64,000 nt of DNA, from the NCBI GenBank assembly GCA_016906335.1, contig JADEYG010000012.1, positions 1 through 64,000 on the forward strand. The letters run 5' to 3'. This document shows positions 33,559 through 59,107 of this stretch, piece after piece. Source of the DNA: Novakomyces olei. Taxonomy: Eukaryota. The position numbers were made by a program, and so were the translations under genes. Each line of letters begins with the position of its first letter. Position 1 is the first letter of the stretch. The notes beneath the pieces are model-generated. The model worked only from the letters and a program-made list of their open reading frames with translations, was not told the DNA's origin and searched no databases.

Positions 33559-34615
33559 CTGAGCCTTGAAGTCTATAAAAGGACAAGGTTTTCCATAGTT
33601 TAAGTGTCATATCAATATGACATAATTCCGTTTTCATCGGAGATAATTGTCATGATCCTCGCCTTGGCGAGTTCCTGACAACCGCGTTGGGAAGCGAGGG
33701 GCGACGCCTGTAGTCGGACTTGGGATGTCCGCGCGTCGCAAGCTTCGCCAACGCGGCCCAAGACCAGTCGGCGCGTAACGCGATGGTCTTGGGACGTAGA
33801 AGTTGTCTTAGTGCGCATGTAGGTACGCGCACTAAGCCAGCTTGGCCCACGGGAGCGAGGGGCTCCATGCACAATGTGCACGGACTTCGCTTCCCGTTCT
33901 CATTCTCGCACGCTAGCGAGTGCGACTCTTCGCACTCCGCTAGCGCGAGAACATTCATAGTTATTTCCATAGTCTAGTTTAGGTTGAGAGCTTCCCGCTC
34001 TAACTTGCGCGACCTTCGCACAAGTTAGTTTGGGAAGAGTAGTTTAGAATGCGAAGGAGCATCCGCTCCTCCGCAACTTAGTTTAGTTTATAGTTGCCCG
34101 TGAAGGCCTCTCGCCCTTCACGGGTTGATTATCTCAAAGTGGGAGTAATATATTATATTACTCCTGGTAAGCCTTACAATAATCGCTTTCTGTTCCCTTG
34201 GTTTCTGTAATTCCTTTACTTCTATTTAGACTATACACGACCGGCCTCCAGCGGTTGTAGTTGTAAGGACCGTCTTACACTATAATCAACCCGTCCCGGT
34301 CGTTGAAGTTTGAAGTTTTTTGGAATTGTTTGTGTTTTATTTCCTTCGGATTCGAGAGAGTTTCGGACGTCGAGTCAAAGACGCGGTTCGGTACTTATTT
34401 TTACGGATTTTTACGGAAGTTAAAACGGTTAAAGCGTCGAGTGAAGGACGTGGATTGGAGTTTGAGAATTTTGAGTTATCGAGTGTTCCGGTGAAACACA
34501 GTTATTTTGAGTTATTGAGTATCGGCTTGGATAGTCGACGATTGAGTGAACAATTTACGAAGAACGGTTCTGGAAGAACGATTACGATTACGAGTTTTGC
34601 GGTACGAGGGACAAG

Positions 34616-35548
34616 ATGTCGCAAGAGGAGCTTAACACCTTTTTGCAATCCCTGCAAACTCAGATTGCCGAGTTGAAGGCAGAGAACGAGAAAGGGCGAT
34701 CGCACATTGCGCATCTGACCCAGGAGATCGGTTCGCGAGCTAAGAGAGCTCCGACGAGTGACGGACCAGCGGTGATGAAGCCCGACGCGTTTCGTGGGGA
34801 CCGCAGAATGGTCGAGAATTTTTTGGCGCAGCTTCGCCTTTACATCATGTTGAAACCGCACGAGTTTCGCGACGAGCGTTCGAAGGTTCTGTTCGCAGCT
34901 TCGTATTTGCGGGACGCCGCATTTGCGTGGTTCGAACCACACCTTCGCAACAACGACTTCGCTTCGGTAGTACCTACTTTTGAAGCCTTTTGCGAAGCGT
35001 TGGCCGCGAATTTCGGCAAGGTCGACAGGGTGAGTCAGGCGCAAAGAGAGTTAGCCGCCTTGAGACAACGTGGATCAGCAGCATCTTATGCGAGCATTTT
35101 TCAAAGAATTGCTTCGTACTTGGATTTCAATGACAGTGCGCTGACGTTCATGTATTATCAGGGGCTGAAGGATCGCATCAAGGATGAGCTTTCCAGGATG
35201 GACAGACCCCGCACTTTGAATGAAATGATTGAGATTTCAGTTCGCGTGGATGGAAGAATATCCGACAGGCACATCGAGAGTGCAAGCCGCGGTTCCGTGA
35301 AATATTCCAACAACCGCCCGGCTGCAAACGCGAGTACAAGTTTTACTCCTATGGATGTGGACGCGATTAGTTTGGAAAAGGAGGATAACAACCATCGCAA
35401 AAGCAACATCAAATGCTTTAACTGTGGACGCGTGGGTCATCGAGCAAGAGAATGCAAGCAGAAGAAGAAGACGTACAATCAGCAACACGTCGCTGCATTC
35501 ACGCACGAATTTTCCGATTTGGGAAAAGCGAACGCCCAGGTCCAATGA
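34616..35548 (+). CDS. gag: Element A Gag with CCHC zinc knuckle
   Basis: KVLFAASYLRDAAFAWF, LRQRGSAASY, PMDVD, CFNCGRVGHRAREC. Confidence 0.95.
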   Translation: MSQEELNTFLQSLQTQIAELKAENEKGRSHIAHLTQEIGSRAKRAPTSDGPAVMKPDAFRGDRRMVENFLAQLRLYIMLKPHEFRDERSKVLFAASYLRDAAFAWFEPHLRNNDFASVVPTFEAFCEALAANFGKVDRVSQAQRELAALRQRGSAASYASIFQRIASYLDFNDSALTFMYYQGLKDRIKDELSRMDRPRTLNEMIEISVRVDGRISDRHIESASRGSVKYSNNRPAANASTSFTPMDVDAISLEKEDNNHRKSNIKCFNCGRVGHRARECKQKKKTYNQQHVAAFTHEFSDLGKANAQVQ

Positions 35549-38500
35549 AAAGGCCTGATCTGGGCAAACAACAATTTAGGCCACCAGAAGTTATGACAGT
35601 TTTTACGGAACCGGACAAAGCAAAGCATCTGACTGTCGTCGTGAAAGTCAAGACAGAGGATGGAGAGTTGAACGCGAGAGCCCTGATTGACTCAGGAGCT
35701 ACCTCTAATTTTATCAGCGAGAAGCTCGCATCGCATGCTTTTATTAAGCTTACGGAGAAGAGCGAGACCGAGACCATCAGAGTCATTGATGGAAGGACAA
35801 TCAAGTCAGGAGGTATTCGCTTTCACACCAGCGAGATGGATATATCAATTGGCGAACATCGAGAAAGGATGACCTTCAATGTCATACCTCTTCGTGGATA
35901 CGATGCTATCTTGGGCAAGCCATGGTTGGACAAGCATGAGCCTACGATCGGATGGAGTCGCGCAAACGTCGAGTTCAAGTCGAACTACTGTTTGGCGAAC
36001 TGTTTGAAGTGCAGTACATTATCCGAATCCATGCAAGTCAGCGCAACCGAATTTGCAAGATTGGCTCGTAATGGAGAATCAGGTATTTTATGTGTGTACG
36101 CAACGGACGAGCAAGATATCGAGCCTCGCGTTACATTGCCTGGGTTCTACGAGGGATATCGCGACCTATTTGAGAAGAAGAACGCGGACGTTTTGCCGAA
36201 ACATCAACCTTGGGATCATGCGATACCCTTGGCCGAAAATGCAAAGCCGCCTTTTGGTCCGATCTACCCGCTCGCCGAACGCGAATTGCAAACTCTGAGA
36301 GATTATATCAAGGAAAACCTCGCTAAAGGTTTTATACGACCGTCGTCGTCGCCCGCGGGGGCGCCGATCTTATTTGTCAAAAAGAAAGATGGATCGCTTA
36401 GATTATGCGTTGACTATCGCGGTCTGAACGCAATCACTGTCAAAAACAGATATGCATTACCGCTTATATCCGAACTTCTAGATCGCATTCGCCAAGCAAC
36501 TATTTTTACGCGACTGGATCTTCGCGGTGCATATAATTTGGTTAGGATACGAAAAGGCGACGAATGGAAAACGGCCTTTCGTACGAGGTACGGCCACTAC
36601 GAGTATCAAGTCATGCCGTTTGGGCTTACGAATGCCCCGGCTTCGTTTCAAGCACTCGCCAACGACACTTTGCGAGATTGCCTGGATCGATACGTTGTCG
36701 TTTACTTGGACGATATACTGATTTACTCAAATACAGAGGAAGAACACGTGGAGCACGTGCGCGGAGTATTGGAGAGACTTCGCAAGGCAAATTTATTTGT
36801 CAAATTGGAGAAATGCGAATTCCATACCGACACAACGGAGTTTCTAGGCTTCGTAATTTCAACGAAAGGTGTGTCGATGGAAAATACGAAGGTCAAATCG
36901 ATTGAAACATGGCCCGAGCCAAAGAATGTTAAGGAGGTTATGTCGTTCCTGGGACTGGCGAACTATTACCGAAGATTCATCGCCAACTACAGCAAGATTA
37001 CGGTACCTCTTACCCGGCTCTTGAAGAAGGATACAAAGTTCGTGTTTAGCGATGAATGCAAGGAGTCATTCAATGCGTTGAAGGATGCATTCTTAGGCGC
37101 ACCTATTCTTGTGCACTTTGATCCACAAAAGCCGAGCTTCTTGGAAACGGACGCCTCAGAGTTTGCGATAGGCGGGATCCTTTCGCAAAAAGACGAGAAC
37201 GGCGATATGAGACCAATCGCATTTTACTCGCGCAAGATGACAAGCGCAGAGACGAACTACGACATTCACGACAAGGAGCTATTAGCTATTGTTGTATGTC
37301 TTCGGGAATGGAGGGTATACTTGGAGAGTCCCCTTCACAAAACTACGATATACACGGATCATCGCAATCTTGTGTACTTTTGGACCGCGCGTGTCCTGAA
37401 TAGACGGCAAATGCGCTGGTCGCAGTTACTTGCGTCTTACGATTTTGTGATCGTGTATCGTGCGGGAAAGTTTAACCACAAGGCTGACTCCTTATCGCGA
37501 AGAAGCGATTACGTTAGCAGCGAAGAGGAGGAAAAGCCAGAACGAACAATGGTGCTTTTGGACAAATCGCAATTTGTGTTTGCGATTGAGGACAACAAAA
37601 CGCTGGCACAGGATATTAAGAAATGCTACGAGAAGGACAGCATTTTGCAAAAATATTATTGAGGAGTTAAAGAGCAAGCCTCGTGCTGCTCATTTGGAGA
37701 ACTATACAATAGACAAGGAAGGTCTGTTAATGTTCTCGGGTTTGATTTACATACCCAGAGACAACGATTTGCGATTATCAATCATGCAAGAATGTCATGA
37801 TTCGCAGACTTCAGGTCACCCCGGACAGGCTAAGACGCTAGAGCTTGTGACACGAAATTACTACTGGCCTAGGATGCGGAAGGACGTATTTAACTATGTG
37901 GACTCATGCGACACTTGCGCACGAAGTAAACCATCGCGTCATGCTCCTTATGGTCTACTACATTCGTTGCGAGTGCCTACAAAGCCTTGGGAAAGCATTG
38001 CTATGGACTTCATTGTGAAGCTCCCCGTGTCAAGAGATGTCATTACAGGCAAGGACTACGACTCAATTTGGGTTATAGTATGTCGCTTTACGAAGATAGG
38101 CATCTTTGTACCAATACGCGAGACCATGGCGCGAAAGAACTAGCATTGCTATACGCTCACAGAGTATTTGCTAACTTTGGACTGCCAGAAGAAATTATCT
38201 CAGATCGTGGATCAGTTTTCGTATCACATTTTACGAAGCATTTACTCGCACATTGTGATATCAAGCAAAGGTTATCAACTGCGTACCATCCCCAGAGCGA
38301 TGGACAAACGGAAAGGCTTAATCAGAGCCTCGAGCAATATTTGAGAATTTACAGCAATTACCAACAAACGAATTGGGTAAACTTGCTACCTTTTGCACAG
38401 TTCGCATATAACAATACTGAGCAATCATCAATAAAAGCGACCCCTAGTTACGCTTTATATGGGTATCACCCCAAATGCCGTTTTACGATAGCAACAGCAC

Positions 38501-39068
38501 GGCAGTGTCCATCGGCGGACAATCGGATTGATTTCTTGCGAACGCTACATCGCCTTTTACAGATCGAAATCAAGCACGCCATTAGCGATCAAGCACGGTT
38601 TGCTAATACGCACCGTGTCGACAAGAATTTTGAAGTCGGTCAGAAAGTATGGCTAGTGAGAAAGAACATCAGTACCACTAGGCCAAGCGACAAGTTGGAT
38701 TACAGGAAGATTGGACCCTTTGCAATCTTGGAACGTATCGGTTTACGTGCATACAAGTGGATTTACCGAACACGATGAGAATACACCCAGTATTCCATGC
38801 TTCTTTATTGGAATCGTACAAGTCTACGTCTACGATTGTGCGACAGCAGACAGCACCACCACCACCAATAATAATTGAGAATACACCAGAGTGGGAGGTA
38901 GAGGAAGTGTTGGACTCAAGGAAGCGAAGAAACAAATTGGAATACTTCGTACACTGGAAGGGATACGATAGTGCTAATCGCACTTGGGAGCCGGCAGGCA
39001 ATTTGACAAATTGCGACGATTTAGTGAAAGAATTTCACAGATTACACCCGGCTAAGCCGAAGCTATGA
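35521..39068 (+). CDS. pol: Element A Pol (protease-RT-RNaseH-integrase-chromodomain) via -1 frameshift; three further apparent 1-nt frameshifts
   Basis: LIDSGA, YLDDILI, ETDAS, GHPG...CDTC, ISDRG, DGQTER and chromodomain WEVEEVLDSR...YFVHWKGY...TWEP. Confidence 0.93.
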
Positions 39069-40605
39069 TGTTTACGTTAAACGCGATACAGGTTACGTCA
39101 TTCAACTCACGTAATCTTACGCAATCGCGAGACTCAACTCTTGATTTTTGTCTACGACTGCGATATAATACACAATTCGCACTAGTTATTTATCGCTATT
39201 TGGAAAAAACTTTTTTGAAAATCATGCAAAAAAAAAATTATTAAAATCGAAAACGATGAAGCTAACACCGCTTTAATCATTTACGGCGTTGACAAATTGA
39301 ACGCGACTATTGTTTATTCTATCGCACGACATACACACGTTATACGGAGGAGATACGACAACACTGACCAGGGAGACGACTTGGTTTGCAATTGGAAGAC
39401 AGTATGGTCTACATGTGTTCGTGCTCGCATTTTAATTTTCTTTCCTTACGCAGGGCAATGCGAACATTTATTGATTGATTTGATTTACCCATGCTATTTT
39501 ATTGAGACAAGACTGTGGAAGAGTTGCAATGTTCCTTATTATGTTGAAAGCTGGGAAATCTGTTGTTTTTATTTTCGCCTTACTATTGTTTTGGGATATT
39601 TTATGTTTTGCGGGCGCGGGGACCTCGCCCAAGGGAGGGGGGATACTGTCATGATCCTCGCCTTGGCGAGTTCCTGACAACCGCGTTGGGAAGCGAGGGG
39701 CGACGCCTGTAGTCGGACTTGGGATGTCCGCGCGTCGCAAGCTTCGCCAACGCGGCCCAAGACCAGTCGGCGCGTAACGCGATGGTCTTGGGACGTAGAA
39801 GTTGTCTTAGTGCGCATGTAGGTACGCGCACTAAGCCAGCTTGGCCCACGGGAGCGAGGGGCTCCATGCACAATGTGCACGGACTTCGCTTCCCGTTCTC
39901 ATTCTCGCACGCTAGCGAGTGCGACTCTTCGCACTCCGCTAGCGCGAGAACATTCATAGTTATTTCCATAGTCTAGTTTAGGTTGAGAGCTTCCCGCTCT
40001 AACTTGCGCGACCTTCGCACAAGTTAGTTTGGGAAGAGTAGTTTAGAATGCGAAGGAGCATCCGCTCCTCCGCAACTTAGTTTAGTTTATAGTTGCCCGT
40101 GAAGGCCTCTCGCCCTTCACGGGTTGATTATCTCAAAGTGGGAGTAATATATTATATTACTCCTGGTAAGCCTTACAATAATCGCTTTCTGTTCCCTTGG
40201 TTTCTGTAATTCCTTTACTTCTATTTAGACTATACACGACCGGCCTCCAGCGGTTGTAGTTGTAAGGACCGTCTTACAATAATCCGTTCGATTGCGGATT
40301 ATTTCCAATTCCGGAATTTTAGTTAGCCACTTTGTGGCTTAGACAGTCTTTTCCGTAGTTGTTTCTATTTTTAGTTATAGTTAGTTAGTTCCAGCAAGGA
40401 TAAAAGGAGGCCCGTTCGCACTTTTATCCGACGCTGATTATCGACCGTGTCGACCGTGTTGACCGTGTAAACCGTTTTAAGTACTATTACCTTCCATTTG
40501 GCTTCCCACCACAGTTGCCGTGAAAGCAACACAGCCGTACCCAAACCAAACAAAGAAAAACACAACAGTATAATCAGCCCACGTTGTGGTGCCGAGCCGT
40601 TCGTC

Positions 40606-41616
40606 ATGGAAGGTGTCGACATGAATCGTCTGAACCAATTTGTTGAGGAAACAACAGCGAAGTTACAGCTACTGGAGCATGAGAACATGATGCTGAAGGT
40701 CAAATTGGAAAACGATCAGGAGAGTCGACATGCGACGTTCAACCGGGAGCCCAAGTTAGCCCCGCCACCTTTGTTTTTTGGCGAGAGAGCTAAGGCTCGT
40801 GAATTTATCACCCAAGTGAAAATGATAACCGACGCACTACCCTCGAGATACGGATCGGACCGCCAGAAGGTCACGTTTGCAGCAACCTATTTGCGAGGAA
40901 CCGCGTTCAGGTGGATTGAGCCTCACATCCTAGGGGAAAACGAAGGAATACTCAACGATTTTGAGACGTTTTGTGATTCATTCCTACAGATGTTTGGTGA
41001 TCGAGATATTAGAAAGCAGGCGCAGAAGCAAATTCGCAATCTGAAGCAGTCTGGAGCTGTTGCTCAGTACGCAGCCGAGTTTGACAGACTCAGAGCGAAC
41101 TTTAGCTGGAACGAAGAAGCGTTGATTTCGCAGTACTACGAGGGCCTTAGCGACAGGCTTAAGGACGAATTGGCAAGAACGACAGAGCCTAGTACCTTGC
41201 GAGAGATGATCGAGATGACGATCAGTATTGATAATCGTCTATTTGAGAGACGTAAAGAGAGACAGAGAACAAGTTACGAACCGAGAACGTATTATGAGCC
41301 GAGATTTACGGGCAGAAGTAACCAGACGACTGCACCGATGGAAATTGATTTGGCGGTTGCCGGTGCCAGAGGAGCAGGCAGACCCGCAAGAGAGTACAAG
41401 ACGAATGACAGAGAGCACAAGACGAATTACAGAGACGCGAGAGACGCGAGAGAAAGAGAGAGAAGTCACGACAACAGAAACGTACAGTGTTATAATTGCC
41501 AGAAGAAAGGGCATATTGCAAAAGAGTGCAAAGAAAAGAGAATTCCGTTTGTAAGCCGTCAAGCTGCAATGACGACGAACGAGTTGAGCGACGACTCGGG
41601 AAAAGATTTCGCCTAG
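40606..41616 (+). CDS. gag: Element B Gag with CCHC zinc knuckle
   Basis: KVTFAATYLRGTAFRW, LKQSGAVAQY, PMEID, CYNCQKKGHIAKEC. Confidence 0.95.
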   Translation: MEGVDMNRLNQFVEETTAKLQLLEHENMMLKVKLENDQESRHATFNREPKLAPPPLFFGERAKAREFITQVKMITDALPSRYGSDRQKVTFAATYLRGTAFRWIEPHILGENEGILNDFETFCDSFLQMFGDRDIRKQAQKQIRNLKQSGAVAQYAAEFDRLRANFSWNEEALISQYYEGLSDRLKDELARTTEPSTLREMIEMTISIDNRLFERRKERQRTSYEPRTYYEPRFTGRSNQTTAPMEIDLAVAGARGAGRPAREYKTNDREHKTNYRDARDARERERSHDNRNVQCYNCQKKGHIAKECKEKRIPFVSRQAAMTTNELSDDSGKDFA

Positions 41617-44600
41617 AGAAAGAAGTGGTTTCTCTAGGACAAGCTGAATTAAAAGCCACTGAAAGACGACGAGATACTGGAGTGAGACATTTGGAGACGG
41701 ACGTCCAAATAAATGGGCTTAGACGAAAAGCTTTAGTGGATTCAGGAGCGAACCTAAATTTCATACACCCGCGATTAATATTGAATTTGAATCTAAAGAC
41801 AGAAAGACTTCAGAGACCAATTGTGATACAGGTTGTCGATGGCCGAAGCCTGGCATCAGGACCCGTGGCGAGAACTACGAAGATTATGGACATGAAGATA
41901 GGAAATTGTGTTACACCTACGAGATTTTATGTGGCAGATATTGGCCAGAGAGACATCATTTTGGGTATTCAATGGTTGCAAGAGAACAATCCCATTATTG
42001 ATTGGAAGAATCGTACATTATCATTTGAAGTACAGAATACAGAGCAAGATTATGCAGACGCAACTTGCACGCAGACGAGCGGATTAAAGGCAAGTTTTGC
42101 GGATGAAACACAAGTGCCGCAAGAGAGCGGATTTTTTCCCGAAAAACCGGAAAGCGATAACGTTGGAAAAATCCCCCAAATTCCTACAGAATATGAAGAC
42201 TATCGTGATGTATTCGATGAGAGACGAGCAGACGTATTGCCACCGCATCGAAGCTATGATCATGAAATAATATTGGAAAAGGGATCGAAGGTACCTTTTG
42301 GACCTATCTACAACATATCTGCAGACGAGCAGAGAGAGTTGCTCAAGTATATTGAGGAAAACTTGTATAAGAAATTCATCAGAAAATCGAAGTCACCAGC
42401 AGGAGCACCCATATTGTTTGTGAAAAAGAAGGACGGGAGCTTACGACTCTGCGTGGACTACAGAGCACTAAATGCGATTACAGTCAAGAATCGATATCCT
42501 ATTCCGAGAATTGATGGACTCATCGATAAGTTAAGTGGAAGTCGTATATTTACTAAGATCGATTTGAAAGGCGCTTACAATCTGATACGTATTCGAAATG
42601 GCGACGAGTGGAAAACCGCATTTCGTACAAGATACGGACATTTTGAATACAGAGTGATGCCTTTTGGACTCACTAATGCGCCAGCAACTTTCCAAAACCT
42701 TATGAATGACGTATTCCGAGATATCCTGGATAGATATGTCTTAGTCTATCTGGATGACATCCTCATTTACTCGAGAAATAAAGAGGAACATATACAGCAT
42801 GCCAGAGAAGTGTTTAAGCGATTACGAGCAAGACAGCTGTTCGCAAAGGCAAGCAAATGTGAATTTCACAAGACAAAAGTGGAATTTCTAGGATTTATTA
42901 TATCGACAGAAGGAGTTTCGATGAGCTCGGACAAGACCAAGCCTATTAATGACTGGCCCACACCAAAGAACGTCAAGGACGTACAGTCGTTTCTTGGACT
43001 ATGCAATTATTACAGAAGATTCATTCCTGGATTTTCAAAGATTGTGACACCAATAACAAGTCTATTAAAGAAGGATAATACATTTAGCTGGGAGCAGACC
43101 AAGAGAAGGCTTTTGAACAATTGAAAGACAGCTTTCGAAGAGACGTTACGTTAAAGCATTACGATCCAGAACTCGAGTGCATTGTCGAAACAGATGCCTC
43201 AGATTTCGCTATAGGAGCCGTACTGTTACAAGAACAAGGAGGCGAAAAGAGACCGATTGCTTTTATAAGCAGAAAGCTTGAACCAGCCGAGATCAATTAT
43301 GATATACACGATAAAGAGTTACTTGCGATTGTCTATGCATTCGGAATATGGAGACACTATTTGCAAGGACATCCAAAGCCAATTATTGTATATACTGATC
43401 ATCGGAACTTGCAGACGTTTACTACGACAAAGAAACTATCGAGGAGACAAGCACGTTGGTCGGAACTATTAGGAGAATATGAATTTAAGATTCGATACAG
43501 AAAAGGATCAGGAAACGCAGCAGCAGACGCGTTGAGCAGAAGAGTTGATTTTAATAATGTTGACTTAAAGGAATACCAAATTGATAAGCCGTTGATCGAT
43601 CCAGCAAGATTTGATCTAAGTATGACAACAGTCGAACATATAGATACGGACGAGAAGCTGGAAATATTGCGAGCATGCCATGATCACCCATTAGCAGGAC
43701 ATTTTGGACAACATCGAACGTTAGAACTAGTACAGCGTTTTAAGAAGTGGAAAAATATGTCGCAGGATGTTAGGGATTACGTAGCATCATGTGCGACGTG
43801 CTGGAGAAGCAAGAAATCGAGGAAGAAACCTGCAGGATTATTAAACCCGCTACAAGTACCGTCAAGACCATGGGAATCTGTTTCAATGGATTTTATCGTT
43901 AAACTTCCCGAATCCGAAGGTTTTGATTCAATACTAGTGGTTGTTGACAGATTTTCTAAAATGTGTCATTTAATCCCTTGCAAAGAATCATCCACAGCAA
44001 CGGATGTAGCGAGACTATACATTGACAAGGTATTTAAACACCACGGACTACCAAATGAAATCGTATCAGACAGAGATCCAAAGTTTTTGAGCAAATTTTG
44101 GCAAGGCATGTACCAGAACCTTGGAGTTAAGCTATTGCATTCGACGAGTCACCACCCACAAACAGATGGACAGACTGAGAGAACCAATCAAACACTCGAG
44201 CAATACTTAAGAGCCTATGTCAATTACAACCAAAACAATTGGAGCAAGCTATTGTCTTTTGCGGAATTCGCAATGAACAATGCAACAAACAGCAGTACAA
44301 GACTATCACCGTTTTACATTTGCAACGGTTATCATCCAAAGGGAATACAGATCACAACTTCCCAGAGTGACAATCCAGCAGCAAATCAAACTACACGAGA
44401 CTGGAACGAATTATTTGAACGAGTCAAAAGCAACATTCAATCTGCAAATAAAGTATCAAAGCTACATTATGACAAAAAGAAAACAGCAGCAAATACATTT
44501 GTGCCTGGAGACAACGTGTGGATCCAGAGAAGACACATACACAGCGAGCGACCATCGGATAAACTAGATCATACAAGACTGGGACCTTTCAAAATTATTG

Positions 44601-44923
44601 AGGCTATAGGAAATAGCGCTTACAGGATTGAGCTTCCCCAACATATCAAAATACACAACGTATTTAATGAAACTTTACTGGAAAAATGTTTACCAGACCG
44701 ATTTCAGAGAGACCCAACAGATGTACACGTTCCCGATGTTCTAGTGGACACGACTGAATACGAAGTCGATTACATTTGCAATCATACAGGCAGAGGCCGA
44801 AACCGCAAATATTTAGTGCATTGGAAAGGTTATGGAGTACAAGACCGTACATGGGAACCTTTTGGAAACCTGACAAATGCAACAGAGGCAGTTAAAGCAT
44901 ACTGGAATAACCAAAAACATTGA
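41598..44923 (+). CDS. pol: Element B Pol (protease-RT-RNaseH-integrase-chromodomain) via -1 frameshift; one apparent 1-nt frameshift at ~43092
   Basis: LVDSGA, YLDDILI, ETDASD, HDH...GHFG...CATC, SDRD, DGQTER, YEVDYI...YLVHWKGY...TWEP. Confidence 0.94.
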
Positions 44924-45174
44924 ATCCGCAATATCAACACATAATCCGCTAAGATACGGATCAGATATATCTATATTATTGCTTTTATTGTTATTCTATG
45001 CTACGACTATTACTTAATAAAATAATTAAGTATATACTATTATTATCATTATTATTTTTATGGAACGTCAAAGAATTATTACTTGTCGAAGTCAAGTATA
45101 ACGAAGTCTATATATATGTGGGCTACCCCCACCAAATCCGCAACTTAGACATCAAATCCGCAAATTTACGGACA

Positions 45175-46230
45175 ATGAACAATAACGTTCTTGAAGAGGG
45201 GAGGCAGCGCAAGCGATACGCGCTGGACAGCGGTAAGTTCCAATGTGTTGTGTGCACTCGACAGTACACCCGAAAGCACGACCGCGACCGTCACATGGAG
45301 ATGCACGACCCTGATCTGGTTGGCTGGGCCGAAGAGTGGTTTAAGGAGGAAGACCGACCGAACAAACAGTTGGCGAGAGACATTTTTACTCTGCTCGCAT
45401 CGGTTGATTTCGAAAAGCTCAAGCCCCATAGCGAAAGGTTTGTTTTCGATTGCAAGCCAACATGGGCACATGTCTTCGAGGACCTTTTGGAGGATGAGAC
45501 AGCTTTGTTTATGGACATACGGGTTCGCGTGCATGATGACGAAATACGAATCGCCCAGGTCCTCGCATCATTCGTCCAGCCGGGGACTACGAGATACGCA
45601 GCCTACAATTTGAGGCCGATCAGCGAATACGGTTTATCGTCAGTGGGCCTTCGCGCGCAAGGATTGTTGAAGGAAAGTTATTTGAATGAACTTGGATGGA
45701 ACGGGACTGCCACACCGTCGGGCACAATCACGGACGTTCACGTGGATCCGGTTCTGTGCGAAACCGTCATTGTGGGAATTCTTGGGAGAAAGCTGGTCTT
45801 TACGTGGGCCAATTCAGAGGCCAATTTACAGAAGTTGGAGCCCTATCATCGCAGGCCAGGAGACTTTATATTACCTGAAGCTCTTCGCAGCCTCGAAGGG
45901 TTAAAGATTGGAGTACTAGAGCCGGGAGTTATTTTTCGATTAAGGTCTGGGACACCACATGCGGTGATGTCTTTTGAGAAAGCAGTCTTGATGGGTTACT
46001 ATATTGCTAGCGAAGACCAGGCTTTATACCGAGTGGCAAAGTGGGAATCGTCGTGGGCTAGTACACAGTTCCCAACTATTCGAGACGAGGTAAAGGAAGA
46101 TCACGAACGTTGCTTGATGGCATATCGTGATTGGGCAGGAGAAGACAGCAGGAGACAAGGCTGGTACAAAAAGGCACAGGCGGCAGTGTCTACGTTTTTG
46201 GAAGAGGAGGATAGTGTCATATCAATATGA
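45175..46230 (+). CDS. Element B ORF3: C2H2 zinc finger + JmjC-like Fe(II)/2-oxoglutarate oxygenase (351 aa from ATG 45175; frame open from 44998)
   Basis: FQCVVCTRQYTRKHDRDRHMEMH (C-x2-C-x12-H-x3-H) and ITDVHVD...GRK...LEPG..F.LRSGTPHAV. A TATATATA lies at 45109-45116. Confidence 0.8.
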   Translation: MNNNVLEEGRQRKRYALDSGKFQCVVCTRQYTRKHDRDRHMEMHDPDLVGWAEEWFKEEDRPNKQLARDIFTLLASVDFEKLKPHSERFVFDCKPTWAHVFEDLLEDETALFMDIRVRVHDDEIRIAQVLASFVQPGTTRYAAYNLRPISEYGLSSVGLRAQGLLKESYLNELGWNGTATPSGTITDVHVDPVLCETVIVGILGRKLVFTWANSEANLQKLEPYHRRPGDFILPEALRSLEGLKIGVLEPGVIFRLRSGTPHAVMSFEKAVLMGYYIASEDQALYRVAKWESSWASTQFPTIRDEVKEDHERCLMAYRDWAGEDSRRQGWYKKAQAAVSTFLEEEDSVISI

Positions 46231-47011
46231 CATAATTCCGTTTTCATCGGAGATAATCCGTTCGATTGCGGATTATTTCCAATTCCGGAATTTTAGTTAG
46301 CCACTTTGTGGCTTAGACAGTCTTTTCCGTAGTTGTTTCTATTTTTAGTTATAGTTAGTTAGTTCCAGCAAGGATAAAAGGAGGCCCGTTCGCACTTTTA
46401 TCCGACGCTGATTATCGACCGTGTCGACCGTGTTGACCGTGTAAACCGTTTTAAGTACTATTACCTTCCATTTGGCTTCCCACCACAGTTGCCGTGAAAG
46501 CAACACAGCCGTACCCAAACCAAACAAAGAAAAACACAACATTAAGGGTAGATTTAATTAATCTAAAAGTTATAACAGTGAGTAATTTCCACAATTATAA
46601 CACTCTTAGTTCCTGTTCGAGATAAATTTTGAGTTATTTTATAATTAGTGAGAAGTTGGTACGTAGTCCGTTAAGGATATAAAGGGGCTTCTTTCCTTGA
46701 TAACTTTACGGTTAATCAACTTTGTTGGAAGAGATAGGTTCCATTTGGAGTTCCCTGCTGTAGCCAGCCGCGTACGACTGGCAGAAGCTTATAGTAATAA
46801 AAGCGGCTATTACTACGAGCAGCTAAGAGTTCTACATACCCAAGCAAGCGTGCTGGGTCGCAACATAAAAGGAGGCTTGGTGTCAAGGTCCCCGCCTCGC
46901 GCGCACCACGACAGCGAACGACGCCTGAAGCCCTGTAGCGCCAAGGGCGATGACTTCAGGCTAAATAGCTTGCGCGAGGCAATGTCGGACATTACTCGCG
47001 CGATGCCCGTA

Positions 47012-50897: not shown

Positions 50898-53697
50898 TGT
50901 AGAAACTTTTGGTTGGCTTGTAGAGAATAATATTGTATCTCCTTTTAGCTACTTTTCTAAGTCTACTAACGCTGTACTATATAGTTTCTTTGGTTCCAGC
51001 CACCGAGTTACACTTTGGTAGCGCAAGCCTCTTGTACTCAGTTCTAGCCACTCCATCCAGCCACTTCAGCCATTTTGGCTATTCCAGCTATTCCAGCCTT
51101 TCCTCCTCTTTTCTATACCCAGCCTTCCTGTTCTTTTTCTGTGACGTCCAAGCTTGACATATTCCTGTACTCCCTCTCAAGCTTGTTGTCGTCACTTTCA
51201 CGTGTTTCGCCTTTAAGTATCTTTTGTTGTAGGTAGTCAAATATTTTTTTGCATAAGGGCTTTGTAAGTATATCCGCCACTTGTTCTTTTGTGGAAATAT
51301 AGTCCATAATAATTCTGCCCTTCTCAGTAAGGTCCCGTAAAAACATGAAGCGCACATCCAGGTGTTTTAAGCGTCTCATAGGGCTCGCTTTGTGTGATAC
51401 GTAAATTGCGCTGTTATTGTCCGAGCACACTCTTAGGGGGTGGTCCAGGTTAAGTATTTTTTTGACCAGATTTTTTATTCCCAGTCCCGTTACAATTGCA
51501 GAGCACGCACTGACATATTCTGCTTCGCATGTTGATAATGCAATAATTTTTTGTTTTGAGGAACTCCAGTGAATTAGCGATGTTCCTAAAAACATTGCCA
51601 TTCCTGATGTGGAGTGTCTGTCAGATGCTTCGATAGCGTAGTCGGCGTCACAATAAATCGTGAGGGTGAAAGGGACGGTGTGTTGTAACGTGTTTTCTGA
51701 TTGGCTGCCAACCTACTCAATTTTCTTATCACACTCTTGGCACATTCCTAAGCTACTCTTGGCACATTCCCAAACTATTCTTGTCACATTCCCAAGCTAC
51801 TCTTGGCGCATTCTCAAAATACTCTCATAAGTACATCTAAGCCACAGTGGGGGAAACGTATATAAATAAATAGTCGAACAACAAATTAATTAACAATATT
51901 AACAATCATAAATTGCTCACAACTACACGGTGTTGCTTTGGTATTCAATTCCAAGTTCCTTCGTGTCTCTTAAGTAAGTTGTAATTTGTTTAATTAGTTC
52001 CAGACATTCTGTAGTTGGATTTTCTTGGAATCTTGCAGCGTGGGATACGGCAAATGCTATGTCTGGTCTTGTGCGTCTGCTTATCCATAGTAGCATTCCA
52101 ACGCATTTTCTGTATTCCGTCTGCTCAATCGGTTTTCCATTTAACACAACGTAATTTTTAATTGGTGTCTTTTTTCTTGGTGTATCTTGGCAGTCAATTT
52201 TTTTTACTGCCTTTGAACTGGCAGCTTTTTGGGTAATTTTCATGTTGCCGATTTTTCTGTCATAACTGAATCCCATACCAAGGAATTGGTGGATTTGTCC
52301 AAGGTCTTTAATTTTAAAAGCCTGCCCGAGTTTTGTTTTCGTGTTATCGATTTCGTACATTTCTTCACCAATAATAATTATATCGTCAACATAAATTAAC
52401 AAAAACGAATTTCGTTTTGCATTGTGTAAAATGCAGTTTTCTGTTGTGGATTCCAAAAATCCTAAAGCTGATAATGTTGTAAATAATTTTTTATACCAGC
52501 ATCTCGGGGCCTGCTTTAGTCCATAAAGTGACCGTAGTAGTATGCAAACTCTTCCGGTTCCATCATCAAAGCCTTCGGGCTGTCTCATAAAGACACATTC
52601 TTCCAGGTCTCCATTTAGAAACGCCGTTGTTACGTCCATTTGATGGATATGCCATTTCTTTGAAACGGCATAGGCAAGAAGTGTGCGTAGTGATTCAAGG
52701 GCCATAGTTGGTGCGTAAGTTGCCTGATAATCAATACCCTCGCGTTGCGAAAATCCCTTTGCAATCAGCCTTGCTCTATATCGTTCAACTTCTCCTTGAT
52801 TATTGGCTTTCGCTTTAAAAACCCATCGGTTTCCAATTATATTAGCTCCCTCTGGAGCATGTACCAGTTTTCACGCATTGTTTTCCTTCATTGCATTTAA
52901 TTCAGTCTCCATAGCCTCTTCCCATTCCCGAGCGTGCAAACTGTTGCGCGCCTGCTTTGTATTGTTTGGCTCTATAATTTCATTTATTGCCACATGCGCT
53001 CTATCATAAATTCCTGGAGCATGACGAATTCTGGTTGAGCGTCTGATTCCGTCGTTTGAAATGGTTGTTTCAAATTCTTGTGTATCATTCTGCTGCTGTG
53101 TTTCGTGATTGTCCTGATTTTCGTCCTCTAGTATATCGTCATTAACATTAATTGAGTCAGTCGTGTCTTGAAAAAATTGCTCCGAGTCTTCTGACGCGCC
53201 ATCTGATGAGGTAAAAATTCTTCGTCATTTTCTTCAGAATTGGAAGGATATTCGGGTGTTTGTTCAGTTTGTAAATTTTTTGAGACAAATATATTTCCTC
53301 CTCCCATAGTTAAAGGCATTTCTCTTCTCTCTAAATTCTTTTCTTGTTTGTTTGCGTCATAAAATTCAGATTCATTAAATATCACATCACGCGAAATAAC
53401 CACTTTTCTCGTCAAAGGGTTCCATAGTCGATAAGCCTTGGCATTTGTTTGGTAGCCAACAAATACATGTGGTTCACTCCGAGTGTCGAGTTTTTTAATT
53501 CCTCCTTGTTTTTTCAAGACGAAGGCTTTGCATCCAAATACCCTTAAATGGTCTAGTATCGGAGCCTTGTCAAATACCATTTCGTAGGGCGTGTAGTCGT
53601 TAATTCTCGTCGGGCTACGATTTTTAATGTATACACAAGCGTTTACTGCTTCGTCCCACAAGTATTCGGGGACGTTTCTTTCACTCATTGTAGCCCT
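50898..53697 (-). mobile_element. Copia family F 3' half (integrase C-term, RT, RNase H, PPT, 3' LTR 51169-50898), with stops/frameshifts
   Basis: YLWDEAVNACVYIKNR, HLRVFGC, KKLDTRS, HQMDVTTAFLNG, LYGLKQAPR, IYVDD, ALSTCEAEY, QVADILTK. Confidence 0.92.
51681..51927 (+). mobile_element. Solo LTR family G inserted in copia F pol
   Basis: TGTTG...CTACA with TSD CGGTG (51676-51680 / 51928-51932). Confidence 0.92.
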
Positions 53698-55777
53698 TAT
53701 AGGAATATGTCAAGCTTGGACGTCACAGAAAAAGAACAGGAAGGCTGGCTACAGAAAAGAGGAGGAATGGCTGGAGTGGCTGGAGTGGCTGGAGTGGCTG
53801 GAACTGAGTACAAAGAGGCTTGCGCTACCAAAGTGTAACTCGGTGGCTGGAACCAAAGAAATTATATAGTACAGCGTCAGTAGACTTAGAAAAGTAGCTA
53901 AAAGGAGATACAACACTATTCTCTACAACAAGCCAAATTAAATTTCTACAGATTAAGAGTCTGAGTTCAGTCAATATGAGCAAACTCGGGATATCACTCA
54001 AGCTCCACGGGCAGGCAGACCTGCCGTACCTCGCAATTCCGCGATTGGGGAATTTAATCGAGTTTCCCCAATGGAAACAGAAATTGTCGGAGGTGTTGAC
54101 CACGTACGGGCTTCAGCACGTCATGCCCGATTACAAGGGAGAAAAAGCTGCGACCGAGGATGTGGCTTACCAGTCAACGATGGCCATACTTCTGCTTACA
54201 CTAAAGGAAGCTATCTCTGTGCCAGTACTTGACGACCTGTGCCAAAAGGCGCCAAATCCGGAAATTCTGTTGGCAAATGTCAGCAACGCATTTCAGGAAC
54301 GAAAATACCGCCTTTTAGTCCAAGTCAGTAGCGAGCTGTATGGACTAAAAGCACAGAGCTTGGGGGAGGTGGCAGGACTCCACACAAAATTTAATAGTCT
54401 GGTCACCAGCTTGGGAGAGCTGCGAAACGACCTTTGTCAAGAGGAAGTTCTCCAAATTTATCTCAACATGATACGAAATTGCAACTCTTTGAATTCGGAA
54501 ATTCGTGTTTGGGAACGAGCAAAAAATGTCCTTCTGAAGGATATACAAGAAATTGTCGTTGAAGCTACGCAAAGCCACGGCGAAAGCGCCGAAACTGCGC
54601 TGACAACGTTCCGCGCCTCTACTTGTCATTACTGCAAAAAGAGAGGCCATACAGAGGAACGCTGCAGACTTAAAAATAATACTTGTTTTGTCTGTGGAGC
54701 AAAGGGCCATTTTAAAAATAATTGTCCTAAAGCAACAAACCAGATGAATAGTAATAAACTCGGTGAACAATTTTATCAGGATGCCTTTATTAATGCCATT
54801 ACACCAAACACCATTAATAAAAATTGGATTCTCGATTGTGGTGCGTCGCAACACATGACTTATAATAAAACCGGCTTAACCAATTTTAAAAAATACAATA
54901 GCCATGAAAATCATTTTGTCATAGCTGCCGGAAAAGAAAAGTTGAGAGTACTGGGCAGTGGGGATATTTCACTTACGACGTCCCAAAACAAACAACTTAT
55001 TTTGAAAAATGTGCTGTGGGTTCCCCAACTGGGGTACAATTTAATTTCACTTGGCGCATTAGACACAGAATTAATTTCTGTCACATTTGATAATGGAAAA
55101 GCTACACTGTTTAAGACACAGAATAAAGAAGTGCTTGAAACATTTGAGAAAGAAAATAACCTTTATCCCCTTCGGACAAAACAAATTGGTTATATTGCAG
55201 AAAACAAAGCTCTTGCGATAAGTGTTCCTGAGAAACAAAAATTATGGCACGACCGCTTAATGCACTTGAACGAAAATTATATGATAAAACTCGCTAAAGG
55301 CCTTGGAGCAGGAAAAATACAACAAGACCTTGACAAGACAAATATAAAAGTTAAATGCGAAAGTTGTATCAAAGGAAAAATGGCACGCCAACCATTTCCA
55401 GAAGGACGCCTAAGAGCAGAAACAAAGTTTGAATTACTGCACAGTGATGTATGTGGACCATTTCCAGTTTCAGCTTCAGGGAAATGTTACTTTGTTACGT
55501 TGATTGATGATTTAACCGGATATACATTTTTATTCACAATCGCCAATAAATTTGACGTTAACAATTGCATACAAAATTTGGTTAATTTGATTAAAACTCA
55601 GTTTGGAATATCTGTCAAAAGAATTCGAAGCGACAACGGGGGAGAATTTGTTAATCAAGCTCTTAAATCCTACATGCAAGAAAAGGGAATTATTCACGAA
55701 CTGACTGCGCCCTACACTTCACAACAAAATGGTGTTGCAGAAAGGGCAAACAGAACAATACTCAACAGAGTCAGGGC
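53698..55777 (+). mobile_element. Copia family F 5' half: LTR 53698-53950, PBS, gag-protease-integrase N-part ORF from 53976
   Basis: Two zinc knuckles (CHYCKKRGHTEERC, CFVCGAKGHFKNNC), WILDCGASQHM, WHDRLMH, CESC, HSDVCGP, RSDNGGEF, QQNGVAER. Confidence 0.94.
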
Positions 55778-56129
55778 TGTAGAAATTTAATTTGGCTTGT
55801 TGTAGAGAATAGTGTTGTATCTCCTTTTAGCTACTTTTCTAAGTCTACTGACGCTGTACTATATAATTTCTTTGGTTCCAGCCACCGAGTTACACTTTGG
55901 TAGCGCAAGCCTCTTTGTACTCAGTTCCAGCCACTCCAGCCACTCCAGCCACTCCAGCCACTCCAGCCACTCCAGCCACTCCAGCCACTCCAGCCACTCC
56001 AGCCACTCCAGCCACTCCAGCCACTCCAGCCACTCCAGCCACTCCAGCCACTCCAGCCATTCCTCCTCTTTTCTGTAGCCAGCCTTCCTGTTCTTTTTCT
56101 GTGACGTCCAAGCTTGACATATTCCTATA
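55778..56129 (-). mobile_element. Copia F LTR with expanded 9-bp repeat
   Basis: Reverse complement of 53698-53950, with 15 instead of 4 (TGGCTGGAG) units. Confidence 0.92.
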
Positions 56130-56796
56130 AGGAGCAGCTGTATTTTTAGGGGATTCACTTGTACACTGGAAATCAACGAAGCAAAGCGTTATAGCAGATT
56201 CAACTTGCGAAGCAGAATATATCAGTGCCCAAACTGCAACAAAAATTGGGTTGACCATAAACAATTCAATAAACGAAATATTGGACACCAACAAGCAGAT
56301 TGAAGTATATTGTGATAATCAGAGCACAATTTTACAGGCTCACGAAAGAAGCCCGATGAGGAAACTAATGCATCTTGACTTGAAATATTTGCGATTACGC
56401 GAACTCACAAAAAGCGGGCAGATTATTGTGAAGTACATTAAAACGGCAGAACAAGTTGCGGACATTTTGACAAAACCTCTTGGAAAAAATGTTTTTGCCT
56501 ATTTGCGTGATAAATTAGTTTCAAAGGGAATAAGGTGAAGAAGAAGAAAAACGAGTTAGGTTGAGAGGGAGTGTTGTAACGTGTTTTCTGATTGGCTGCC
56601 AACCTACTCAATTTTCTTATCGCACTCTTGGCACATTCCCAAACTACTCTTGGCACATTCCCAAACTATTCTTGGCACATTCTCAAACTACTCTGATAAA
56701 TACATCTAAGCCACAGTGGGGGAAACGTCTATAAATAAATAGTCGAACAACAAATTAATTAACAATATTAACAATCATAAATTGCTCACAACTACA
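56130..56796 (+). mobile_element. Copia family G RNase H fragment, PPT and 3' LTR (56572-56796)
   Basis: VHWKSTKQSVIADSTCEAEY...YCDNQS...QVADILTKPL, then GAGAGGGAG. Confidence 0.88.
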
Positions 56797-57239
56797 GTAT
56801 GGCCATTGTTGACTGGTAAGCCACATCCTCGGTCGCAGCTTTTTCTCCCTTGTAATCGGGCATGACGTGCTGAAGCCCGTACGTGGTCAACACCTCCAAC
56901 AATTTCTGTTTCCATTGGGGAAACTCGATTAAATTCCCCAATCGCGGAATTGCGTGGTACGGCAGGTCTCCCTGTCCGTAGAGCTTGAGTGATATCCCGA
57001 GTTTGCTCATATTTACTGAACTCAGACTCTTAATCTGTAGAAATTTAATTTGGCTTGTTGTAGAGAATAATATTGTATCTCCTTTTAGCTACTTTTCAAA
57101 GTCTACTGACGCTGTACTATATAGTTTCTTTGGTTCCAGCCACTCCAGCCACTTTGACTATTCCAGCCTTTCCTCCTCTTTTCTGTAGCCAGCCTTCCTG
57201 TTCTTTTTCTGTGACGTCCAAGCTTGACATATTCCTATA
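56797..57239 (-). mobile_element. Copia F 5' fragment (LTR 57239-57036, PBS, gag start)
   Basis: MSKLGISLKL... is near-identical to the N-terminus of the 53976 ORF. Confidence 0.88.
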
Positions 57240-57649
57240 TAAAGCACCTTGATGTACGATATATGCTTCTGCGAAATCTTACCGAAAACGGCACAGTGAT
57301 TGTCGATTAAATATCTACAAAAGAGCAACTTGCGGATATTTTAACAAAGCCTTTATGTAAAAAGATTTTTACACACTTACAACAAAAGCTGGTGAAAGGA
57401 GATTCAAGAATCGAACGACTACAAACTTGAGAGATAGTATAGAAAAGTATATCAAGCTTGTGCAGCGGCTAATTACTAATTATAGAAATATAATTTACCG
57501 TGAGAAGTGGGATAAATTTTACCGTGAGAAATGCGATGGCAAACCGGCAGACTATAAATAGACTTAGCTAGAATCACTATAATAAACGAAAATTGAATAC
57601 AACATTTATTCCATTTAACACGTTCGAAACAAACTTACAAGATTCAACA
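57240..57649 (+). mobile_element. Copia family H RNase H end + 3' LTR (57438-57649)
   Basis: Diverged match to 60377-60754. Confidence 0.8.
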
Positions 57650-59017: not shown

Positions 59018-59107
59018 ACTCCCGTGCTGCTCATTTTGTTCAGACTCTTAATCTGTTGAATCTTGTAAGTTTGTTTCGAACGTTTTAAATGGAATAAATG
59101 TTGTATT

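Follow-up and report, generated by a model that had tools for sequence, protein, structure and literature searches.

Introduction

Transposable elements that carry epigenetic tools of their own are already known, with VANC, TET/JBP, SET and AlkB genes as described cargo, while a JmjC gene in a long terminal repeat (LTR) retrotransposon is something that we have not found described. Here, we analyze such a gene, an open reading frame (ORF) for a 351-residue zinc finger and JmjC protein that lies between pol and the 3′ LTR of a Ty3/gypsy chromovirus, termed element B, in Novakomyces olei. The locus is part of a 64,000-nucleotide (nt) stretch, positions 1 to 64,000 on the forward strand of contig JADEYG010000012.1 (GenBank assembly GCA_016906335.1), which was analyzed as a whole, is referred to as the window and provides all coordinates given below.

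Several described systems offer points of comparison. In Phalaenopsis orchids, Ty3/Gypsy elements possess an extra ORF for an AlkB 2-oxoglutarate (2OG) dioxygenase, an N6-methyladenosine (m6A) RNA demethylase active in vitro, as set out in the sections of PMC9289625 dealing with these elements, and its authors proposed that this cargo counters host surveillance of the element. Passages of PMC12730594 on transposon-encoded enzymes describe fungal DNA transposons, among them Kyakuja and Helitrons, that encode TET/JBP dioxygenases, report SET genes in DNA transposons of oomycetes and state that no retrotransposon with TET/JBP was found. VANC of the Arabidopsis VANDAL elements (MuDR) binds short motifs that recur in non-coding regions of its own family, whose silencing it relieves, according to the relevant parts of PMC5735166 and PMC10398659. 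For Schizosaccharomyces pombe, portions of PMC6576747 and PMC7192584 portray Epe1 as a JmjC anti-silencing factor that opposes heterochromatin marked by histone H3 lysine 9 methylation (H3K9me) and is recruited through Swi6/HP1.

An initial annotation, made from the DNA of the window, had suggested that element B carries an anti-silencing gene of a novel kind. Regarding novelty, no report of an LTR retrotransposon with a JmjC gene turned up in the open full-text literature, including the pertinent parts of PMC3248453, PMC9289625, PMC10799480, PMC12730594 and PMC11105155; subscription journals, Repbase Reports and supplements (such as Figure S1 of PMC3248453, which concerns ‘complex transposons’ with additional domains) were outside this scope. 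The narrower claim of an undescribed JmjC cargo in an LTR element stood in this respect, but a broader one, that no transposon brings such tools, proved too strong in view of the passages on orchid AlkB and fungal TET/JBP elements (PMC9289625, PMC12730594).

A complete chromovirus with an additional gene

Element B is a complete Ty3/gypsy chromovirus in which Pfam recognizes gag, protease, reverse transcriptase, RNase H, integrase and chromodomain. Its target-site duplication, TTAAG, is located at 33600-33604 and again directly after the 3′ LTR at 46542-46546. The 3′ LTR (46215-46541, plus strand, 327 nt, TGTCA...ACAACA) faces a 5′ LTR that is split by a second, nested chromovirus, element A. 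The first 43 nt of this 5′ LTR (TGTCATAT..., 33605-33647, plus strand) were located through a 45-nt exact match to 46213-46257, and the remainder lies at 40279-40567 (plus strand), where the first 5 nt (40279-40283) are the ATAAT duplicated by element A and 40284-40567 is the LTR proper. Once both pieces (33605-33647 and 40284-40567) are joined, the two LTRs, with TG...CA ends, are identical at 327/327 positions. Because of this identity and the TTAAG at both ends, the unit of gag, pol and additional ORF came in as one very recent insertion.

All genes of the element are on the plus strand. gag (40606-41616) encodes a Ty3 capsid and a CCHC knuckle (Pfam Ty3_capsid and Retrotrans_gag, each with an expectation value (E) of 2e-14; zf-CCHC, 1e-6). 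Part 1 of pol (41496-43124), in the −1 frame relative to gag, contains aspartyl protease (gag-asp_proteas, 1.9e-10) and reverse transcriptase (RVT_1, 1.7e-40), and part 2 (43088-44923) contains RNase H (RT_RNaseH, 6e-38), integrase (Integrase_H2C2, 3e-19; rve, 1e-10; Tf2-type SH3, SH3_Tf2-1, 3e-17) and chromodomain (Chromo, 9e-11) and ends with a TGA at 44921-44923. The two parts overlap at 43088-43124 and are offset by exactly one base at a G run. At this position (43090-43092), the window has GGG and both sequencing runs covering the site, X1 and X3, have GGGG; the frame break is probably an assembly homopolymer error or a mutation private to the window copy.

An AT-rich spacer of 251 nt with ~31% GC (44924-45174, plus strand) connects pol to the additional gene (45175-46230, plus strand), hereafter the cargo ORF, whose product is designated P0001. 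The ORF begins with an ATG at 45175, 252 nt past the pol TGA, and extends over 351 codons without intron or internal stop to a TGA at 46228-46230. Its end is formed by a purine tract (GGAAGAGGAGGATAG, 46200-46214, plus strand), which encodes the last acidic residues, and by the first 16 nt of the 3′ LTR, with the stop codon 14 nt within the LTR. Position and composition, directly before the TG of the LTR, suggest that the tract serves as the polypurine tract (PPT) of element B. An alternative upstream ATG at 44998 adds 59 residues drawn from the 31%-GC spacer, an extension that is probably non-coding. Base composition was considered as a sign of foreign origin and dropped as indecisive: GC content and GC at third codon positions (GC3) are 0.50 and 0.54 for the ORF, 0.41 and 0.36-0.40 for pol, 0.48 and 0.53 for gag, and 0.48-0.50 and 0.41-0.52 for host genes.

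The coordinates in the initial annotation were all correct, comprising those of the ORF, the pol stop (44923), the 3′ LTR start (46215), the zinc finger and the His and Lys codons discussed below, and so was its assignment of the ORF to a chromovirus with chromodomain integrase bounded by target-site duplications. It had been silent on the split 5′ LTR with nested element A and on the two-frame pol with the GGG/GGGG difference.

A zinc finger joined to a predicted JmjC fold

Near its N-terminus, P0001 has a basic stretch, RQRKR (residues 10-14), followed by a C2H2-type zinc finger at residues 22-44 (45238-45306, plus strand; F-x-C24-x2-C27-x3-Y-x8-H40-x3-H44). The finger shows the canonical C-x2-C-x12-H-x3-H pattern and, in the structural model described below, strands at 22-23 and 30-31 and a helix at 34-42, that is, a beta-beta-alpha arrangement, at a predicted local distance difference test (pLDDT) value of 79-83 for this block. 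Pfam scores remained below cut-off, with 14.7 bits against 27 for zf-C2H2_4 and 13.6 against 25.2 for zf-C2H2, as is common for a lone C2H2 finger, which seldom passes it. Finger structures in the PDB matched with E values of 0.05-0.08, and multi-finger proteins match residues 17-73.

The remaining body (residues 62-350, 45358-46224, plus strand) represents a JmjC catalytic domain with flanking helices by comparative evidence beyond Pfam, since P0001 returned no match to Pfam JmjC, JmjC_2 or Cupin_8 even at E≤1. Of the two Pfam domains that the initial annotation had named for a check, zf-C2H2 gave a weak signal (E 0.05-0.1) and JmjC none. A family profile was built from P0001 and 47 of the 70 proteins found by HMMER (see below), leaving out multi-finger proteins, an HA-domain protein and short fragments. 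Compared with the PDB, this profile matched ceKDM7A at 2.3e-12, KDM2A at 1.9e-11, PHF8 at 2.7e-10, KDM7 at 1.9e-8 and PHF2 at 7e-5. Among 18 matches at E≤1, the 14 significant ones (2.3e-12 to 1e-4) all belong to KDM7, KDM2A, PHF8 or PHF2, and the remaining four are JMJD6 at E ~0.9. In the profile alignment, the family motifs TD-H-D, G-K, PPT--NL and IHAV overlie the same motifs of KDM7/KDM2A-type enzymes. In view of these PDB matches and of the HMMER hits, the JmjC-like motif is no coincidence.

Structure prediction gave a concordant picture. An AlphaFold2 model computed with the family alignment, which replaced a single-sequence fold with a pLDDT of 36, reached a pLDDT of 87.0 and a predicted template modeling score (pTM) of 0.84. 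Foldseek returned at least 500 PDB matches at E≤1e-3, the best 30 of which are all KDM7, PHF2, PHF8 or KDM2A with E ~1e-10. Structural alignment with VIA-align, covering residues 62 to 348-351 on PHF2, ceKDM7A, PHF8, KDM7A and KDM2A, ranked PHF2 first (Z 17.8, 269 residues, root-mean-square deviation 4.0), followed by ceKDM7A and PHF8 (16.8), KDM7A (16.7) and KDM2A (16.3). Ranks 1-23 are occupied by the KDM2/KDM7/PHF8/PHF2 group (Z 15.6-17.8), with JMJD5 (Z 15.4, 196 residues) and KDM6/UTY (~14.5) as other JmjC folds and JmjC structures overall at Z 14-18. The top ESM Atlas cluster was ‘JmjC domain-containing protein’ (score 0.96, 198/256 features), followed by clusters annotated as JmjC and zf-C2H2.

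Residues expected at the active site are present. The metal ligands of the HxD motif lie in T186-D-V-H189-V-D191 (45730-45747, plus strand), which aligns to the TDFHVD of ceKDM7A and KDM2A and places T186 at the 2OG-binding Thr. K206 (G-R-K, 45790-45792, plus strand) aligns with the KDM2/7 G-x-K lysine (GEK and GGK), and H262 of GTPHAV (45958-45960, plus strand), the distal metal ligand, aligns to IHAV of ceKDM7A and KDM2A. In the KDM2/KDM7 group, the Thr of T-D-x-H-x-D and the Lys of G-x-K bind 2OG. Across the 48 aligned family members, H189 is found in 48/48, D191 in 46/48 and K206 in 43/48, all three being retained in P0001; the column of H262 has His, as in P0001, in 43/48 and Tyr in 5/48, and that of T186 has Thr in 34/48 and Ser in 9/48. 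The Tyr-bearing sequences suggest that part of this family may be catalytically altered.

The modeled body of P0001 adopts a double-stranded beta-helix of the JmjC type, to which the KDM2/KDM7/PHF8/PHF2 group comes nearest, with a modest lead over other JmjC folds. Because the accessory domains of that subfamily are absent, P0001 should be considered a structural relative rather than an orthologue or member of KDM2/KDM7, and because no curated Pfam family matches, its JmjC membership rests on profile-to-PDB and fold comparisons. These results agree with the C2H2 finger and KDM2/KDM7-type core, including Fe(II) triad, Thr and Lys, recognized in the initial annotation, and the double-stranded beta-helix fold on which it had staked its interpretation beforehand is indeed predicted. 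That a real JmjC gene is carried by element B is a conclusion that we hold with high confidence.

The cargo ORF across element copies

The ORF is present in three sequencing runs from two studies: X1 and X2, both of which may represent the source, and X3, filed under a different organism label in the other study. Other runs from one of the organisms (organism A) show a share of 0.00, from which we draw no conclusion on presence or absence polymorphism. In X3, all bins (30/30) of 40200-46252 were covered by a total of 492 contig pieces, with 361 matching at ≥99%, 106 at 95-99% and 25 at 90-95%. Invariant contigs showed a word depth of 7267-7829 in gag and pol, and comparable values were obtained for a contig bridging the pol end, spacer and ORF start (44630-45334, depth 7320, 0 differences) and for one leading from the ORF end into the LTR (46039-46243, depth 6463); contigs bearing variants had depths of ~1000-2300. 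Loose ends with different flanks occurred at LTR boundaries, one of them beginning exactly at the 3′ LTR start, 46215. In our reading, X3 contains several copies that are near-identical, and the ORF is present in all or almost all of them, with the qualification that copy numbers do not follow from summed contig depth. The expectation that element copies carry the ORF was, thus, borne out in one run.

The bridging contigs also bear on whether there is a cargo gene at all. A host gene trapped between two elements, or an assembly chimera, might be suspected in a window that contains a pile of nested repeats and, within the element itself, at least one probable homopolymer error (GGG versus GGGG in two runs). 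Against this, a single pair of identical LTRs and one TTAAG duplication enclose gag, pol and ORF, the PPT and LTR start lie inside the ORF end, and X3 contigs span both the transition from pol to ORF, with 0 differences, and that from ORF to LTR. Single target-site duplication, PPT/LTR overlap and independent bridging contigs nearly exclude such an origin, to which we assign a negligible probability.

Among 11 listed coding variants across the element, nine are synonymous, two nonsense and none missense. Those in the ORF comprise three synonymous changes (V247, V252 and A270) and one stop, a G>T at 45910 (GGA to TGA, codon 246) in ~1/7 of X3 depth; the second stop, a C>T at 43577 in pol (CAA to TAA), occurs in an X1 contig and in ~1/3 of X3 depth. 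Purifying selection on replicating copies would give such a spectrum, for which four ORF sites are few. C>T changes make up four of the 11 listed variants, and three of these four are synonymous.

One further X3 contig joins 40567 to 44798 and fuses the LTR end to the chromodomain-coding end of pol, with weak support (side 29) and GT..GC ends. Splicing or a deletion derivative was set aside as its source, as the ends do not correspond to a GT..AG intron and the support is below the reliability mark. One copy nested in another is more likely, given that the joint starts exactly at the LTR end, with a deletion derivative that still has the cargo ORF as the other candidate.

An uncatalogued fungal gene family

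To trace the gene beyond element B, P0001 was compared by HMMER to 1.84 billion representative proteins, resulting in 70 hits at E≤1e-3, of which nine reached E≤1e-10 and none E≤1e-30. The top-scoring true relative had an E value of 4.7e-18 and 30% identity, aligned relatives share 19-26% identity with P0001, and four hits (P0002, P0015, P0054 and P0070) are multi-finger proteins matching residues 17-73 only. Word-indexed searches of 5.8 billion proteins at lengths near that of P0001 returned nothing at E≤1e-3 with P0001 and two proteins with the family profile; at 917-2615 residues, where pol fusions were sought, the profile found none, which is weak evidence. Viral contigs scanned with P0001 and with an alignment of relatives contained no relatives. 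Named family members are hypothetical ‘JmjC domain-containing’ or ‘C2H2-type domain-containing’ proteins from Crepidotus variabilis, Tilletia walkeri, T. horrida and T. indica, and all others are metagenome proteins, including from soil. Since only 2/48 members match Pfam JmjC_2 (and 1/48 Cupin_2, E≤0.01), the family is, in practice, uncatalogued. Among the aligned members, 6/48 show a Cys/His finger pattern at the N-terminus.

Genomic surroundings were inspected for 13 metagenome loci, all found with one four-sequence subgroup on a branch distant from P0001 that does not include its nearest relatives P0003, P0004 and P0005. Eight of the 13 contain the gene as a single uninterrupted frame of 335-513 residues, the other five being cut by contig ends or fragmentary; intronlessness of the cargo ORF as an indication of retro-copying was, therefore, dropped. 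Ten neighboring frames comprised two TPR genes, one GT90 glycosyltransferase gene, one mannosyltransferase gene and six without family, with no transposon protein among them. Scrambled fragments resembling reverse transcriptase were noticed 2.6 kb upstream of the finger-JmjC relative at one soil-metagenome locus (L004:615-1462), the only one of the 13 with a retroelement trace. The Tilletia paralogues (P0009, P0012, P0016, P0024 and cluster mates) are all located on contigs of 2.5-16 kb with high locus-tag numbers, which might fit an association with repeats or mobile elements.

From these sequence comparisons, the cargo looks like a member of a fast-evolving fungal gene family that was taken up by a chromovirus. 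Capture from a host is probable because relatives elsewhere reside in ordinary gene neighborhoods. In a quick tree, P0001 occupies a long isolated branch (1.59 changes per column) with unresolved placement, and no donor lineage can, therefore, be named.

Whether the gene serves the element is a separate matter. A host finger-JmjC gene could have been gained in a single reverse-transcription cycle, perhaps through a template switch onto an mRNA packaged alongside, and recently amplified as a neutral passenger without function for element B. Several data fit this scenario: LTRs identical at 327/327 positions mark a very recent insertion with no time for decay, relatives are ordinary genes next to TPR, glycosyltransferase and mannosyltransferase genes, with gag and pol missing from 12 of the 13 loci, the ORF is present in just three runs, and the stop at codon 246 has already reached about one-seventh of the depth. 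Other data speak for maintenance, including the ratio of three synonymous to no missense variants in the ORF and nine to none across the element, small as these numbers are, and the equal depth of ORF, gag and pol in X3. Moreover, the ORF takes its 3′ end from the PPT and LTR of the element itself and is preceded by a spacer with a rare site of the LTR, so that it looks integrated rather than like a raw transduction, and the isolated branch of P0001 leaves no recent donor visible. On balance, we consider a neutral passenger rather unlikely, and regard retention of the gene for a benefit to the element as an even proposition.

Spacer sites and possible modes of action

The spacer ahead of the cargo ORF has features of a promoter. 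A TATA-like run, TATATATA, is located at 45111-45118, ~57 nt before the cargo ATG. In addition, a motif scan detected an everted pair, ATCCG-N8-CGGA, twice in the spacer, as ATCCG-N8-CGGAT at 44944-44961 and as ATCCG-N8-CGGA at 45156-45172 (plus strand), ending 3 nt before the ATG, and once in the unique 3′ (U3) region of each LTR, ~40 nt into the repeat (ATCCG-N8-CGGAT at 40282-40299 and 46256-46273). These four sites, all in element B, account for the seven strand matches in the entire 64 kb, where 0.19 are expected and none of 100 shuffles reached seven. The related 9-mer AATCCGCAA occurs six times versus 0.83 expected (~7-fold), five of them in element B and three in the spacer. Everted CCG...CGG pairs are the usual site layout for fungal Zn2Cys6 factors. 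The motif common to spacer and LTR suggests that the spacer is a candidate internal promoter regulated jointly with the LTR.

Conceivably, the same motif could also be a putative address read by the cargo protein itself. In the most specific version of this idea, element B would be sent into H3K9-methylated heterochromatin by its chromodomain integrase and then reopen it, with the basic stretch and finger reading its own ATCCG-N8-CGGA sites and the JmjC domain erasing H3K9 methylation there. We view this combination, suggested by motifs in the DNA and protein, as speculative and quite improbable.

A useful protein need not erase histone marks. P0001 might instead act as a non-catalytic activator or tether at such sites or at heterochromatin proteins and bring in the transcription machinery, as reported for Epe1, or it might hydroxylate or demethylate a target other than histones, for instance a silencing factor of the host, Gag or integrase. 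Finger and basic stretch at the N-terminus, together with element-specific repeated sites in U3 and ahead of the ORF, would suit a tether, the Tyr at the distal His position in 5/48 relatives indicates that the family tolerates loss of the canonical triad, and JMJD5-type hydroxylases score nearly as high as the best demethylase-type match (Z 15.4 versus 17.8). Non-enzymatic functions are also described for Epe1 in the corresponding parts of PMC7192584 and PMC6317313. P0001, however, retains every metal-binding and 2OG-binding residue, which would be superfluous in a purely structural role, and overall we judge a benefit without mark erasure to be improbable.

Nested element A and remainder of the window

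The chromovirus inserted in the 5′ LTR of element B, element A (33648-40278, plus strand), was delimited by its TG...CA ends, LTRs and target-site duplication. Its LTRs are identical at 632/632 positions, and the duplication ATAAT is located at 33643-33647 and 40279-40283. Position within the 5′ LTR of element B and LTR identity indicate that element A inserted even more recently than element B. It encodes gag, protease, reverse transcriptase, RNase H and a chromodomain-type integrase end but has just 579 nt between the pol end (39068) and 3′ LTR (39647), with no additional gene. Its insertion point is 43 nt into the LTR of element B, 3 nt upstream of the ATCCG-N8-CGGA site. The integrase region of element A is scattered across four overlapping frames (37451-39068), implying several frameshifts or assembly indels.

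Further Ty1/copia-type pieces occupy 51923-60567, with RVT_2 on the minus strand at 51926-52870 and on the plus strand at 59161-60564, and gag-pre-integrase, rve and Pol_BBD on the plus strand within 53898-55787. The GC content of this stretch is ~0.39-0.40. LTR elements are piled up in the right half of the window. The left half (2471-30834) harbors ordinary fungal genes, among them those for an M24 metallopeptidase, a cytidylyltransferase, an Ecm33-like glycosylphosphatidylinositol (GPI) wall protein, an HhH-GPD glycosylase and an arylsulfotransferase, and the repeat pile begins directly past this gene-dense stretch.

Discussion

Taken as an anti-silencing system, which we infer from sequence features, the cargo of element B would have the following history. 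The gene would descend from intronless finger-JmjC genes of a fungal family, from which the element captured it, and would now be maintained by selection on the element. Its transcription as a separate message would start in the AT-rich spacer, with its TATA-like run and U3-type ATCCG-N8-CGGA sites, and end at the poly(A) signal of the LTR. The product, a nuclear-type protein, would strip chromatin at or around element copies of a repressive methyl mark on lysine, with H3K9 methylation as the most plausible candidate. The chromodomain integrase might direct insertions to heterochromatin, where they do little harm, while the oxygenase would keep the copies transcribable. The whole chain, consisting of a gene kept for the benefit of the element, a message of its own and a product that removes a repressive methyl mark at element copies, is a tentative proposal that we place somewhat short of even. 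Considered separately, the step from benefit to catalytic erasure of a silencing mark is doubtful in our assessment.

A number of observations weigh against this proposal. At the predicted active site, P0001 has Pro261 before the distal His, a position occupied by I, L, F or M in 47/48 family members, and WANS in place of the WPPT of the family. PHF2, which is among the nearest structural neighbors of P0001, carries the same His-to-Tyr substitution as the five family members mentioned above. A single C2H2 finger alone rarely confers sequence-specific binding. No relative above ~30% identity was found among the 1.84 billion representative proteins and no sister elements carrying the gene were found; in addition, tblastn detected no match to gag or pol of element B in 12 of the 13 metagenome loci. 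Data across copies come from one further run, whose relationship to the N. olei organism of the window is uncertain, and include only four ORF variants. Given an LTR identity of 100%, element B is young enough for its ORF to be intact with or without selection. No RNA run is among those listed with the ORF, and two RNA runs with the same species label (X5 and X6) yielded 0 reads on 40200-46252 and are uninformative on expression. Epe1, as a possible model, acts at least partly without catalysis according to sections of PMC7192584, and its catalytic activity is disputed.

If the site-reading version outlined above were true, the cargo would be a sequence-addressed histone demethylase encoded by a retrotransposon, and the first eraser of histone marks to be known from such an element. 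Main transposon controls in fungi include H3K9 and H3K27 methylation, and a JmjC enzyme of the histone-demethylase type in an LTR element would add a layer of histone methylation to the transposon arms race in these organisms. Pairing of a chromodomain integrase with a JmjC protein provides a testable model of how an element might combine a preference for heterochromatin with continued activity. The cargo protein is small (351 residues), encoded without introns and equipped with a complete catalytic set, which makes it amenable to direct biochemistry and reporter assays. Independently of function, a fungal JmjC family outside Pfam coverage is now defined.

Among known enzymes, P0001 most resembles the KDM2/KDM7 group (JHDM1, PHF8, PHF2 and ceKDM7A), which provides the best profile matches (E 2e-12 to 7e-5) and structural matches (Z 15.6-17.8 over ~260-280 residues, with post-barrel helices included) and shares the motif series T-D-x-H-x-D ... 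G-x-K ... N-L ... H-A-V. Members of this group demethylate H3K36me2, H3K9me2, H3K27me2 or H4K20me1 and carry accessory modules, namely a PHD finger or, in KDM2, CXXC, F-box and LRR modules. P0001 differs in that it is much smaller, has only ~9-17% sequence identity and features a single N-terminal C2H2 finger instead of PHD, CXXC, F-box or LRR domains, none of which were found by Pfam; the margin over JMJD5 and KDM6 folds is also just 2-3 Z units. Its relationship to the orphan fungal (finger and) JmjC family is one of true homology with the same core motifs, but P0001 resides in an LTR element, whereas relatives lie away from gag and pol in 12 of the 13 loci. Epe1, in the aspects covered by the cited sections on its anti-silencing role, serves as a functional model, likened by description rather than sequence comparison, and unlike the cargo it is a host gene.

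Compared with mobile elements, element B shares with the orchid AlkB elements the architecture of a Ty3/gypsy LTR retrotransposon with an added Fe(II)/2OG oxygenase ORF, from which it differs because those elements are, in the parts of PMC9289625 devoted to them, 25-kb giants of a plant host with AlkB rather than JmjC and act on RNA rather than chromatin. VANC, as characterized in the portions of the articles cited above, is not a JmjC-type enzyme and has no sequence or fold relation to P0001, but the repeated ATCCG-N8-CGGA sites of element B and the finger of its cargo suggest a putative, comparable logic at the sequence level. The TET/JBP transposons likewise represent fungal mobile elements with a 2OG dioxygenase that is believed to counteract the epigenetic silencing of the family carrying it; in the passages of PMC12730594 concerned, these carriers are DNA transposons whose enzyme acts on 5-methylcytosine, whereas element B is an LTR retrotransposon with a predicted protein of the histone-demethylase type. 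Should the site-reading version of the proposal hold, the cargo of element B would offer, at the level of histones, an equivalent of VANC and of the TET/JBP genes in fungal DNA transposons.

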